A stretch of 64,000 nucleotides of DNA from Myxococcota bacterium (GTDB lineage Bacteria > Myxococcota_A > UBA9160 > SZUA-336): positions 1,408,001 to 1,472,000 of the forward strand of contig CBDFGR010000002.1 in the NCBI GenBank assembly GCA_965247115.1, written 5' to 3'. Positions 27,624 through 53,773 of this stretch are shown one piece after another. Made by a program: the position numbers and the translations under genes. The notes below the pieces were generated by a model. It had not been told where the DNA came from, searched no databases, and worked only from the letters and a program-made list of their open reading frames with translations. Within the stretch, counting starts at the first letter, position 1. Each line of letters starts with the position of its first letter.

Positions 27624-28775
27624 CTACGTCCGCCCAGCGCGGCGCGGCGTCCCCTCTCGCGCCGCGGCGATCGCCAGGTCTGCGGCGTGTCTGGCCGACT
27701 CCGGCCGTCCGAGCTGCGCGGCAACGCTCGCGAAGGCCTCGAACATCTCGGCTCGGGCCTTCGGCACACGGATCAGTCGCGCGAGCAGAGCGGCCAGCGC
27801 CGCCGGCCGCGCCATCTCTTGAATCCGCTCGGGGACGACGCCCGCATCCGCGATCAGGTTGGTAATGGAGCTCGAGGGCACGTATGCAATGCGACGCAGC
27901 AGCTCGAATGAGAGCCGGCTCGCCCGGTGCGCCAAGACGAAGGGAACACCAAGAAGTGTCAATTCCAACGTGACGGTGCCTGAGGCAGCGAGCGCGCAGG
28001 TCGAGATGGCGAGCGCCTCATGGGTGCGCCCAACGACGAGCTGCACCCACTCGGGAAGCTGCGGCGGCTCACGCACAAGCGTGGGAGCGAGGGGAAGCTG
28101 GAGCTGGAGCTCGGGAATTGCCCCGCGCAGCAGCGCGGCGGTCTCCAGCATGCACGGGAGGTTTCCACGCAGCTCATTGCGGCGACTTCCTGGCAGCAGC
28201 GACAGGATCGGTCGCTCCAGGTCGAGACCCAGCTCCGACGCGATCTGCTTCGGCTGCAGCTGCTCGCGCAGCCTGGCCATGCGATCCGCCAGGGGGTGCC
28301 CGACAAAAGTCGCGTCGATGCCCGCCCGCCGCAGCAATGCCTCCTCGAAGGGGAAGATCACGGCCACACGGTCCGTTCGCCGCCTGAGCTGGCGCAGCCG
28401 GCCCGGTCGCCACGCCCAGACTTGCGGAGCGACGTAGTAGAAGACGGGAATGCCGAGCCGCCTGGCCACCGCGGCAAAGCGGAGATTCAGATCCGGAGTG
28501 TCCACCAGGATCGCTAGATCGGGGCGCCGGGTCGCAAGGGACCGGCGCAGGGCGAGGTACGCGCGCAGCAATCCTGGTGCGCTGCCAAGCACCTCGAAGA
28601 GGCCCGCAACGGCGAGATCGGACTGGGGGACCACCGGGTCAAGCCCAGCAGCGAGAGAGGCGGCCCCGCCCAGCCCGAACACTTCGAGCTCAGGCTCGCG
28701 CTCTCGCAGTGCTTCGAGCAGCGGCGCGGCGTGCATGTCGCCGGAGGCATCCGCAGTGGACAGGAAGACCCTCAA
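27624..28775 (-). CDS. lpxB: Lipid-A-disaccharide synthase
   Basis: ASGD.H, YYVAPQVWAWR, IFPFE, FVGHPL, LLPGSR..E, ASGTVTLE. Confidence 0.93.
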   Translation of the reverse strand: MRVFLSTADASGDMHAAPLLEALREREPELEVFGLGGAASLAAGLDPVVPQSDLAVAGLFEVLGSAPGLLRAYLALRRSLATRRPDLAILVDTPDLNLRFAAVARRLGIPVFYYVAPQVWAWRPGRLRQLRRRTDRVAVIFPFEEALLRRAGIDATFVGHPLADRMARLREQLQPKQIASELGLDLERPILSLLPGSRRNELRGNLPCMLETAALLRGAIPELQLQLPLAPTLVREPPQLPEWVQLVVGRTHEALAISTCALAASGTVTLELTLLGVPFVLAHRASRLSFELLRRIAYVPSSSITNLIADAGVVPERIQEMARPAALAALLARLIRVPKARAEMFEAFASVAAQLGRPESARHAADLAIAAAREGTPRRAGRT

Positions 28776-30709
28776 GGAGTCTCCTCGAGTCGCTCGATGC
28801 TCTCCTCGATCCGCAGCGCGAGGTCGAGTGCCCGGTAGCCGTCCTCCCCGCTCACGTCCGGCTTCGTGCGCTCCCGCACCGACGTCGCGAACGCGCGGTC
28901 CTGCGCGAGCAGCGCATCGCCGGAGTCGAGCTCGAGCTTCTCCGCGTGGATGCGCGGTGTCTCTCCTGACTCCGGGCGACCCTCACGGCGCACGATGGTG
29001 AGGCTGTTCTCGCCGAAGTCGATCGAGATGTAGGCGTCGCTCTGGAACAGGCGGACCTTGCGCAGCGACTCGAGCGAGACGCGGCTCGCTGTCAGGTTGA
29101 GGATGCACCCGTTTGCGAAGCGGATGCGCGCGTTCGCGATGTCCTCGCTGCTCGAGAGAACGGGCACGCCGACCGCCTCCACGCGCTCGACCTCGGCTCC
29201 AGCCAGGCTCGCGACGATGTCAAGATCGTGGATCATCACGTCCAGGATCACGCTCACGTCCGTCGCTCGATCAGGATACGGCCCGATCCGATGCGCCTCG
29301 ATGAAGCGCGGTCTGTTCAGCACCGGCCGGATGGCCGCGAAGGCGCGACTGAAGCGCTCGATGTGGCCAACCTGGAGCACCCGTCCGCGGCGCTCGGCCA
29401 GGTCGATCAGCTGCCTGGCGTCTTCGCGTGTCGTGGCGATGGGCTTCTCGACGAGCACGTCGAGCCCGGCCTCGAGCAGCTCCCGCGCGACCCGCGCGTG
29501 ATCCGTGGTCGGGACCGCTAGACAGGCTGCGTCCGCCAGCTCGCGAAGGCGCTCGGGCTCGCGCAGCGCCCGCACGTCGTACTTGCCCGCCACCTCGGCT
29601 GCTCGAGCGGGGTCTGCGTCACAGACGCAGGCGAGCCGGGCAACGCCCTCGCGCTCGAGCTGCGCGAGCTTCTCGGCGTGGAAGGCGCCCATGTGCCCAG
29701 CGCCGACCACGGCGATGCGCGGCAGTCCGCCTTGCGGGTGCCCGCCTTGCGGGACCCGGCGTCTACCTTGCGGGACCCGGCGCGCGAGCGGTCGCGCGCC
29801 ACCCGCTCTTCGTTCGGCTTGCGCCTCACTGCGCGCCGCGCCTTCGGCGCGGCTTGCGGGCGCCGTGCGTAGGGGCGCTTGCACCGTTGAGTCCGAGGGT
29901 AGGCCCACGAGGGTGATGCTCGCGTCGGCCAGCAGGGCGAGGGTTCGCTCGCGCTCGAGGACGAGCGTGCGGGCCGCCTCGAGGCCGATGGCCGCTACGC
30001 CGGCCTCTTTCGCGAGCGCGACGGTGCTCGGACCGATCACGGGGACGTCGAAGCGGAGGTCCTGACCGGGCTTCGCGACCTTGATGACGACGCTGCCCGG
30101 CCCTGCGAGCTCGGCCGCGCGCCGGACCATCGCATCCGTCCCCTCGGCCGCCTCGACGGCCACGACAGCCCCGGCTCGCACGACGACGCCCTGGCCCACG
30201 TCATGGCTGCCGAGACTCTTCGCCACGGTCAGGCCCAGCGCCAGGTCCTGCTCCTGCTCTGCCGAGAGCGGCCCGCCGACCAGGAGACCTTCGCGGACGA
30301 GCCGATCGCCCAAGTACTTGGTGGAGTCGACGACCGGCAGACCTTCGGACTCGAGCTCGTCAGCGATCGCGCGCAGCAGCACGTCGTCGCCGAGCGCCGG
30401 AAGCCGACGCAGCAGCGCGATGGCACGCGCGTCCGGGCGCAGTGAGGCCGGATCCTGAAGCAGCTCTCGCTTGGTGACCGCGCCTGCCAGGATGACCTCG
30501 CTCGCAGCCGCGTCCCTGAAGAAGCGGATCACGCGCTCGAGCTCTCCTGCGGCGAACCAGCCGAAGGCTCCCCGAGCACGCGACTCGATCGCAGGATCGG
30601 TGTTCCTCTCGATCGCCGCGATCGCCACGCCCAACCCGAGCTCCGAAGCGGCCTCGGCCACTTCGAACGGTAAGGGTCCGCTCCCTGCGATCAGCCCGAG
30701 CACCAACAT
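28772..30709 (-). CDS. lpxI: Fused ORF: LpxI (UDP-2,3-diacylglucosamine hydrolase), repeat-encoded linker, Gfo/Idh/MocA dehydrogenase (GnnA-like)
   Basis: N-terminal about 270 aa: GLIAGSG.LP, DVGQGVVV, AVEAAEGTD, K.AKPGQDLRFDVPVIG. C-terminal about 315 aa: IAVVGAGHMG, VEKPI, QVGHIERF, DVMIHDLD, TASRVS. No stop codon between the two domains. Confidence 0.85.
   Translation of the reverse strand: MLVLGLIAGSGPLPFEVAEAASELGLGVAIAAIERNTDPAIESRARGAFGWFAAGELERVIRFFRDAAASEVILAGAVTKRELLQDPASLRPDARAIALLRRLPALGDDVLLRAIADELESEGLPVVDSTKYLGDRLVREGLLVGGPLSAEQEQDLALGLTVAKSLGSHDVGQGVVVRAGAVVAVEAAEGTDAMVRRAAELAGPGSVVIKVAKPGQDLRFDVPVIGPSTVALAKEAGVAAIGLEAARTLVLERERTLALLADASITLVGLPSDSTVQAPLRTAPASRAEGAARSEAQAERRAGGARPLARRVPQGRRRVPQGGHPQGGLPRIAVVGAGHMGAFHAEKLAQLEREGVARLACVCDADPARAAEVAGKYDVRALREPERLRELADAACLAVPTTDHARVARELLEAGLDVLVEKPIATTREDARQLIDLAERRGRVLQVGHIERFSRAFAAIRPVLNRPRFIEAHRIGPYPDRATDVSVILDVMIHDLDIVASLAGAEVERVEAVGVPVLSSSEDIANARIRFANGCILNLTASRVSLESLRKVRLFQSDAYISIDFGENSLTIVRREGRPESGETPRIHAEKLELDSGDALLAQDRAFATSVRERTKPDVSGEDGYRALDLALRIEESIERLEETP
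29724..29860 (-). repeat. Three-hairpin REP-like repeat, copy A (inside the lpxI fusion ORF)
   Basis: Shares 50 consecutive identical bases with copy B and the 33-bp core GGGTGGCGCGCGACCGCTCGCGCGCCGGGTCCC with copies B and C. Confidence 0.9.
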
Positions 30710-30722
30710 GCTGGGGAGGAGC

Positions 30723-31505
30723 CTAACGAAACCGCGCGAAGCCGCGCTCGGATTTCTCGAGGAACGCGATCATGTGTTCGGCTTCGCGCGAATCGGGCAG
30801 TTTCTCGCGGACTGCTGCAAAGGCGTCGACGGGGTTCAGGTTCGAGCGAAAGATGATCCGATATGCCAGCTCCACGGCTTCAATCCGCTTCTCGTCGAAG
30901 CCGCGGCGTTCCATGTTGACCCGGTTCACGCCGATCACGCGTGCAGGATAGCCCTGTAGCTTGAGGAAGGGAGCCGCATCCATGACGAGCCCGGACATCG
31001 CACTCAGCATCGCGGATTCGCCGACGCGAAGAAACTGCCCCACGGCGCAGCGACCGGCGAGGTACGCGTGGTCCTCGACACGGATGTGTCCGGCGAGCAA
31101 GACCTCGTTCGTCATGATCACGTGGCTGCCGATGTGGCAGTCGTGAGCGATGTGGACGCCTATCATGATCAGGTTGTCGTCGCCGATGGTTGTCAGACCC
31201 CCGGCCACCTCCGTGCCGGGATGGATCGTGGCGTGCTCCCGGATGGTGTTGCGCGCGCCGATCACGAGACGCGTCGAGTCCCCCCGGTACTTCTGGTCTT
31301 GCGGGATCTCGCCGACAGACGCGAAGGAGTAGACCACCGTCTCCGGACCGATCTCGGTGTTTCCCGTGACGAGCGCGTGGGATCGCAGCTCGACCCGCGG
31401 CCCCAGCCGGACCTGCGGCCCGACCACGCAGTAGGGACCGACCGTCACGTCGGAGGCGAGCTCGGCCTTCGGATCGATGATGGCCGTTGGGTGAATTCCA
31501 CTCAT
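30723..31505 (-). CDS. lpxA: UDP-N-acetylglucosamine acyltransferase
   Basis: IHPTAIID, PQDQKY, IREHATIHPGT, HIAHDC, hexapeptide repeats, GVNRVN. Confidence 0.94.
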   Translation of the reverse strand: MSGIHPTAIIDPKAELASDVTVGPYCVVGPQVRLGPRVELRSHALVTGNTEIGPETVVYSFASVGEIPQDQKYRGDSTRLVIGARNTIREHATIHPGTEVAGGLTTIGDDNLIMIGVHIAHDCHIGSHVIMTNEVLLAGHIRVEDHAYLAGRCAVGQFLRVGESAMLSAMSGLVMDAAPFLKLQGYPARVIGVNRVNMERRGFDEKRIEAVELAYRIIFRSNLNPVDAFAAVREKLPDSREAEHMIAFLEKSERGFARFR

Positions 31506-53499: not shown

Positions 53500-53604
53500 G
53501 CGCGAGTCTTATGGGACCCGGCGCGCGAGCGGTCGCGCGCCACCCACCTTCGCTCAGGGCTATGCCCTTCGCTGCGCGCGCCGCGTACCGCGGCGCTTGC
53601 AAGG
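53500..53604 (-). repeat. Three-hairpin REP-like repeat, copy C
   Basis: Identical 33-bp core; hairpins GCGCCGCG-GTA-CGCGGCGC and AGGGC-ATA-GCCCT upstream of it. Confidence 0.87.
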
Positions 53605-53639
53605 TTGCCGGTGCGTCAGGAAATCAACGCGTGGGTGGA

Positions 53640-53773
53640 GCCGCAAACCGCGCCGTAGGCGCGGTGCGCAGTGAGCCGTAGGCGAACGAAGAGCGGGTGG
53701 CGCGCGACCGCTCGCGCGCCGGGTCCCGCAAGACACGCGCCGGGTCCCGCAAGGCAGGCCCGCAAGGCAGACT
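53640..53773 (+). repeat. Three-hairpin REP-like repeat, copy B (inverted relative to copy C)
   Basis: Colinear with copy A over its whole length, including three downstream CCCGCAAG units. Confidence 0.9.

Follow-up and report, generated by a model that had tools for sequence, protein, structure and literature searches.

In the genome of a Myxococcota bacterium (G000; 5.17 Mb, 66% GC, three contigs, 98% complete), the neighbouring genes lpxI and gnnA were found to form one continuous open reading frame (ORF), with a hairpin repeat translated between them. The locus lies in the window analysed here, a stretch of 64,000 nucleotides (G000:C2:1408001-1472000; contig CBDFGR010000002.1 of assembly GCA_965247115.1). 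We consider it quite probable that a tandem insert of the repeat at the former lpxI/gnnA overlap joined the two genes, giving what is likely one bifunctional protein with a tether of 46-67 residues, predicted to be disordered and likely neutral. A first-pass annotation of this stretch, made from the letters alone, had described the ORF of 645 amino acids together with its linker peptide, and both are present. The 645 codons are divided into LpxI (residues 1-275), a repeat-derived linker of 54 codons and a GnnA-like dehydrogenase. As judged from the uninterrupted frame, joint translation into one two-enzyme protein is likely.

Both enzyme domains were identified by similarity and gene order. 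Along the ORF, Pfam placed LpxI_N at residues 4-135, LpxI_C at 140-267 and GFO_IDH_MocA at 331-449, followed by C-terminal domains, the Gfo/Idh/MocA region as a whole extending to residue 638. LpxI_N and LpxI_C both scored above the Pfam cut-offs, and the ORF is positioned between lpxA and lpxB. The N-terminal half matched LpxI of Caulobacter (PDB 4GGM) over its full length (E 1.9e-34). For the C-terminal half, the best sequence match in PDB was GnnA of Acidithiobacillus ferrooxidans (7BVJ; E 5.9e-55, the next match being 7e-18), and a Foldseek comparison with 7BVJ gave a TM-score of 0.92-0.96 by target length. The correspondence with these known enzymes is thus full-length in sequence and fold and includes the location between lpxA and lpxB, but the enzymes are separate in Caulobacter and A. 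ferrooxidans, and the candidate GnnB gene of G000 lies elsewhere, as one strong DegT-family aminotransferase match on another contig. Both domains stayed below the cut-offs of NCBIfam equivalog models, LpxI with 152 against 400 bits for NF047836, from whose members it is remote, and the GnnA-like domain with 178 against 450 bits for the archaeal model NF040723. The names LpxI and GnnA are therefore given by homology and gene position rather than by demonstrated activity. The fused protein carries the single PF06230 match in G000 and is the only LpxI found, and a search for LpxH in this 98% complete genome gave no match; given both results, lipid A synthesis of G000 likely runs through the fused protein.

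The two genes are normally separate, as the first-pass annotation had stated. Among 50 genome loci, fusion was observed only in G000 and in G002, a member of the same genus (87% amino acid identity) that carries the same open fusion; the remaining 48, including G001 of that genus, have separate genes, and so do all 65 scorable metagenome loci (80 in total, 15 of which lack one of the two genes). In 27 of the 28 other loci of the same taxonomic family, the lpxI stop and the gnnA start overlap in a 4-nt NTGA sequence, as judged by eye. Separate genes and an empty site in relatives had been predicted and were thus seen. LpxI ends at residue 275 in unfused close relatives, and G000 retains all 275 residues; the absence of a stop and the running-on of the frame stand as first described, but the native end is not residue 270.

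Codon 276, a GTG (29884-29882), occupies the position of the GnnA start in relatives and is retained in both G000 and G002. It opens a remnant that matches the 5' ends of repeat units at 11 of 12 nt in G000 and 20 of 22 nt in G002. This remnant is followed in order by a full unit (copy A), partial copies of the 3' end and the native PRIAVV start region of GnnA, and repeat-derived DNA fills the gap from the lost lpxI stop to the lost gnnA start. The linker was correctly attributed for its greater part to copy A, which belongs to a palindromic family dispersed over the genome. Insertion is favoured as the cause of the fusion because the repeat-derived sequence starts where the lpxI stop has been lost. 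We infer that the tandem insert replaced the 4-nt overlap and itself removed the lpxI stop, and that this would have happened in the common lineage of G000 and G002 once G001 had branched off. The empty junction of G001 and the repeat 5' end agree at 14 of 18 nt. In a position weight matrix test of target-site resemblance (two tests per site; the lpxI-gnnA site of G017 gave no window), p was 0.015 at the G001 junction and results were mixed at 18 other empty sites, a weak hint that empty sites may resemble repeat ends.

A unit of this type may have been tolerated for its near lack of stop codons and its placement between two independently folding domains. Copy A (29740-29819) and copy B (53680-53759), an intergenic unit in the same window, are 93% identical over 80 nt. 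Copy B reads GAG CCG TAG in the equivalent frame, as first described, and the contrast with the loop of copy A, which lacks the stop, is true. Being open in this frame is, however, nothing special, and the loop does not speak for adaptation: of 143 full units, 118 have the frame of the fusion open and 117 have five or six open frames.

The linker was found in 10 protein records, some of which may come from the strain of G000 or of G002, with seven lengths of 46, 52, 54, 59, 60, 65 and 67 residues. Relative to G000, the linker of G002 has gained 21 and lost 18 nt. Later slippage or recombination between the partial copies would have altered the length, and only multiples of three would survive because GnnA must stay in frame. 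In 4 of 4 sequencing runs from four studies (run X1 is possibly the source sample), long contigs covered 29300 to about 29795 and 29791-30300 with no frameshifting gap; one run lacks 21 nt, in frame. One-base gaps at 29820-29845 were present in short high-depth contigs, which were taken as other repeat copies, an assignment that is uncertain. The search for shorter homologues gave 64 matches, none of which covers the linker (coverage 42-62%; 7 of the 64 checked in full).

Several observations weigh against fusion by insertion. The flanking contigs meet in the central hairpin, and none bridges this hairpin in the 4 runs, leaving the whole hairpin unspanned as an assembly artefact would have it. 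The same open fusion in two species and in 10 protein records of seven linker lengths, together with flanking contigs without frameshifts from four studies, makes such an artefact scarcely credible, and assembly error was set aside on these grounds. The protein search at near length returns only fused forms by design. The 21-nt unit of the tail is also 21 nt long in intergenic copy B, so that the 21-nt indel is no independent sign of selection for frame. The repeat was present in all 12 sampled genomes of genus g10, yet the lpxI-gnnA loci examined there are unfused. Repeat-free LpxI-GnnA fusions exist in Syntrophobacterales (P0013, P0014/P0118), and every length variant lies downstream of the GTG, so that fusion and an extra internal start are not separated by the length series.

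This last point bears on the reading that the fusion is made and that, in addition, initiation at GTG codon 276 yields free GnnA with a repeat-encoded N-terminal arm of 54 residues, a second product that would add to the fused protein and that we regard as rather unlikely. The GTG sits at the GnnA start position of G001, and valine is present at this position in 10 of 10 records. Its Shine-Dalgarno (SD) pairing is weak (-3.2 kcal/mol), and that of the real GnnA start in G001 is equally weak (-3.5 kcal/mol). The earlier statement that the dehydrogenase lacks an ATG or clear SD of its own holds for the weak SD but overlooked this in-frame GTG. On the other hand, the GTG is accounted for as part of the repeat 5' end, and its SD is ordinary for an internal GTG, equal or stronger values being found at 45% of sampled ones; the same holds for 69% of ATG starts. 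The G001 start could moreover use coupling to the overlapping stop, which would be lost in the fused form. Between the end of lpxI and the first strand of GnnA, G000 has a single standard start codon, which precedes the unit; with or without use of this GTG, the unit must therefore be translated.

The Syntrophobacterales proteins indicate that fusion of this pair is tolerated and that fusion could have come first. They include proteins of Thermodesulforhabdus norvegica (WP_218148867.1) and of a Syntrophobacteraceae metagenome-assembled genome (MEM5788159.1), with the same domain order and about 40% identity; their linkers showed no match to the repeat (best tblastn E 9.3 and 0.21), and they are known from protein records alone, as a contig scan with P0013 as query did not return the Syntrophobacterales fusion loci. 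Under this order of events, a one-base gain at the overlap would have fused the genes and the repeat would have landed later in the new linker. One extra base is indeed present between the end of lpxI and the GTG in the fused form compared with G001. Such an order is nevertheless improbable, since the lost stop coincides exactly with the beginning of the repeat-derived sequence and no repeat-free fusion was found in the clade of G000 and G002, where P0012 looks like a frameshift artefact. Relatives that share the fusion without the repeat had been named as evidence against a repeat origin; none was found in the clade, and those known are distant.

Coming back to the insertion itself, we compared G000 with G002 for selection, using uncorrected proportions of non-synonymous (pN) and synonymous (pS) differences. 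For lpxI, pN/pS was 0.081/0.293 (0.28) and for gnnA 0.041/0.273 (0.15), indicating that both enzyme domains are under purifying selection. The repeat core (31 codons) carries 2 synonymous and 5 non-synonymous differences (pN = pS = 0.075), and the linker peptide is therefore unconstrained. The DNA of the repeat core is more conserved than the synonymous sites of the domains (0.27-0.29), as is also the case for inserts in DnaE2 and CheW and partly for intergenic copies, where 13 of 31 units gave an orthologous match, with 73-91% identity. This conservation suggests constraint at the DNA or RNA level, or homogenisation of the repeat. In the structure model, the mean predicted local distance difference test (pLDDT) score is 85.8 and both domains are of high confidence; residues 274-326 fall below 50, and the predicted template modelling score of 0.52 leaves the domains without a fixed mutual orientation. 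The linker is thus predicted to be a disordered tether. The computed mRNA hairpins are strong, a TGA is present in another frame inside the unit, and these features, together with the DNA conservation, would fit programmed frameshifting or cutting of the tether, by which most LpxI is released alone. No canonical slippery heptamer was seen by eye, nor any in common with G002, and the conservation is a property of the repeat family; release of LpxI by either route is very improbable.

The role of GnnA and the position of lpxI are taken from the available portions of PMC8036547 and PMC3087551, according to which GnnA acts on UDP-GlcNAc (UDP-N-acetylglucosamine) where the pathway begins, and LpxI follows at least three steps later. 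Substrate hand-over is for this reason improbable as a purpose of the fusion, and its effect is probably neutral. A broader proposal is that stop-poor hairpin repeats provide a recurrent route from translational coupling to fusion, landing at overlaps that resemble their ends and becoming tethers of variable length; in the present case, the proposal makes the tether adaptive: it would keep GnnA close to LpxI, which is membrane-associated, and would adjust how much of the lipid A is diamino, with the same outcome reached without a repeat in Syntrophobacterales. We find this proposal doubtful.

The repeat unit is about 95 bp long with three hairpins. Genome-wide, 196 units in 168 elements were detected in G000 at 25 bits or more, the best score in a reversed-genome control being 13.2 bits. 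Units fold with z-scores of -2.3 to -3.3 (copy A, -2.3), and two-sided changes at 12 of 25 predicted pairs among 31 related copies indicate a conserved stem-loop structure. Genes called with our own hexamer gene caller contain 12 of the 168 elements entirely and 5 in part; the other 151 are intergenic, 58 of them in gaps between convergent genes. Where genes point the same way, 28 intervening copies are antisense, and their median distance to the end of the upstream gene is 3 nt. At the taxonomic family level, the repeat was present in 19 of 32 genomes searched. The first-pass annotation had proposed that a mobile palindrome was taken up as a linker: the repeat origin and the empty sites of close relatives bear this out, and mobility would follow from presence and absence. 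None of six PF01797 matches (Y1 transposase) is flanked by repeats, the nearest element being at least 3.4 kb away, and no linked mobiliser was found in a search that left GIY-YIG, DUF559 and other nucleases outside. Terminal inverted repeats of the kind that mark MITEs are absent, the unit ends being unpaired in the consensus structure; no clear target-site duplication was seen by eye at six filled/empty pairs, whose junctions are decayed, and no GTAG or CGTC end tag was seen by eye in an alignment of 161 units. Neither plasmids, phages nor two unrelated genomes (the latter uninformative) gave repeat matches, and Rfam gave none near its gathering score. Antisense units lie within the last 5-41 codons of called genes at G000:C2:193470-193539, C2:734469-734559 and C3:1308588-1308685, possibly as repeat-derived C-terminal extensions.

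Five more conserved proteins of G000 contain sense-oriented, in-frame units: PurD, an AddA-like helicase, DnaE2, an ImuB-like protein and CheW. Each has empty sites in relatives, and a suggested scan for further inserts had anticipated such cases. PurD (G000:C2:1553723-1555426, L051), the only purD match in G000, carries three tandem units and a remnant between its ATP-grasp and C domains; the site is empty in G002 and G001. Three inserts lie within 13 kb at G000:C3:1783351-1796365 (L052-L054), in the AddA-like helicase, DnaE2 and ImuB-like genes. The AddA-like gene of G002 (L083, G002:C32) keeps only the repeat 3' end, in frame, which indicates that an insert in a coding sequence can later become shorter. 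In DnaE2 and CheW, the insert is common to G000 and G002 and absent from G001. The C-terminal region of ImuB has separate inserts in the G000/G002 pair, in one G001 copy (L082, G001:C236; antisense) and in G023 (L080, G023:C7), and is apparently an insertion hotspot. Only the lpxI-gnnA insert joins genes. One doubtful decayed internal remnant was noted in G000, and no further internal insert was found in 40 extra loci of G002 and G023 (42 elements in 37 loci).

In-frame palindromic repeats are established for RPE, REP, ERIC and BRE (PMC3733652, PMC3184786, PMC2229807, PMC10969869, PMC3110155), and one RPE-bearing enzyme is active; what follows on these systems refers to the portions of the papers available to us. 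Like Rickettsia RPEs (Ogata 2000/2002 and Abergel 2006, as summarised in PMC2229807 and PMC10969869), the present units are structured dispersed repeats of about 100 nt, in frame in conserved proteins, empty in relatives and apparently neutral. Unlike RPEs, they lack a terminal inverted repeat, only 6 of 168 elements are gene-internal as against nearly half in R. conorii, and no RPE model was among the NCBIfam hits (E<=0.001) of five insert-bearing proteins; joining of two genes is likewise not part of RPEs as described. The repeat thus works like RPEs but is a different sequence family. With intragenic GTAG/CGTC REPs (Di Nocera 2013, PMC3733652) it shares a mostly intergenic location, enrichment between convergent genes and beside stop codons, and in-frame copies in genes of replication and repair, which in G000 are those of the AddA-like helicase, DnaE2 and ImuB; unlike those 20-40 bp elements, it has a unit of about 95 bp with three hairpins, no fixed GTAG/CGTC end and no adjacent RAYT. 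BRE of Betaproteobacteria (Hot 2011, PMC3110155) is similar in length (about 90 bp), GC-richness, variable tandem number and some intragenic copies. Short motifs in permuted order are common to BRE (List S1 of PMC3110155) and our unit, by eye only, and both could be members of a broader family, but BRE as described does not fuse genes.

The general phenomenon is known, and what is seen here is its gene-fusing variant by a repeat family undescribed within the literature searched. That search, with most subscription papers outside its reach, found no LpxI-GnnA fusion, no description of this repeat family and no repeat joining two bacterial genes; Additional file 3 of PMC3733652 may hold fusions. 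The locus is a natural example, well bracketed by related states, of how selfish non-coding DNA can make a two-enzyme protein, with unfused relatives in the same genus, a fusion fixed in two species and a series of linker lengths. Domain fusions are used to infer protein partnerships, and such fusions can come from repeat insertion alone, without functional coupling. The six independent inserts in one genome offer a direct test of the tolerance of enzymes to repeat-encoded loops.

Table 1. Features of the lpxI-gnnA locus and related repeat units (window coordinates)
Feature	Position	Strand	Basis or remark
Fused lpxI-gnnA ORF, 645 aa	28772..30709	(-)	Stop overlaps lpxB start; same frame in G002
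LpxI (UDP-2,3-diacylglucosamine hydrolase) domain, residues 1-275, complete to native last residue	29885..30709	(-)	Pfam, PDB 4GGM, unfused relatives
5' remnant of repeat unit at the site of the ancestral overlap; its first codon is the in-frame GTG (codon 276), a possible internal start	29874..29884	(-)	Unit-end match and junction comparison
Copy A, full hairpin unit of about 95 bp, translated in frame	29764..29859	(-)	nhmmer match; fold z -2.3; family covariation
Tandem partial copies of repeat 3' end, 21-nt and 15-nt units; strain-variable length	29723..29766	(-)	Strain comparison
GnnA-like Gfo/Idh/MocA dehydrogenase domain, residues 330-645	28775..29722	(-)	PDB 7BVJ sequence match and Foldseek
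lpxA, upstream neighbour	30723..31505	(-)	ORF and Pfam
lpxB, downstream neighbour	27624..28775	(-)	ORF and Pfam
Copy B, intergenic unit of copy A subtype, stop in equivalent frame	53640..53735	(+)	Read directly
Second intergenic unit, inverted partner of copy B	53505..53605	(-)	Repeat search

Among the remaining candidates, open frames of 644-652 aa in G047, G037 and G038 were rejected as fusions because a stop lies between the genes, and G029, with frameshifts around the junction, was counted as unfused. P0012, P0016 and P0017, each a single record, have junctions suggestive of frameshift or stop-loss errors and are not included among the real fusions; in P0115 a frameshift lies late in GnnA, outside the linker. 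At codon 2 of lpxI (30704-30706), G000 has Leu where most close records have Ser, either a private variant or a base error. P0015 (626 aa), an uncertain single record, is an LpxI-GnnA fusion whose linker resembles a translated repeat of another kind; the residues of the former GnnA start can still be recognised. A different hairpin-rich intergenic insert, with a gap of 317 nt, occupies the lpxI-gnnA junction of L043 (G057:C146), and the LpxI tail of L039 (G056:C43) shows a tandem peptide expansion. In P0048 (679 aa, Omnitrophota), a Gfo/Idh/MocA domain is fused to LpxB, indicating that the dehydrogenase also joins its other neighbour.

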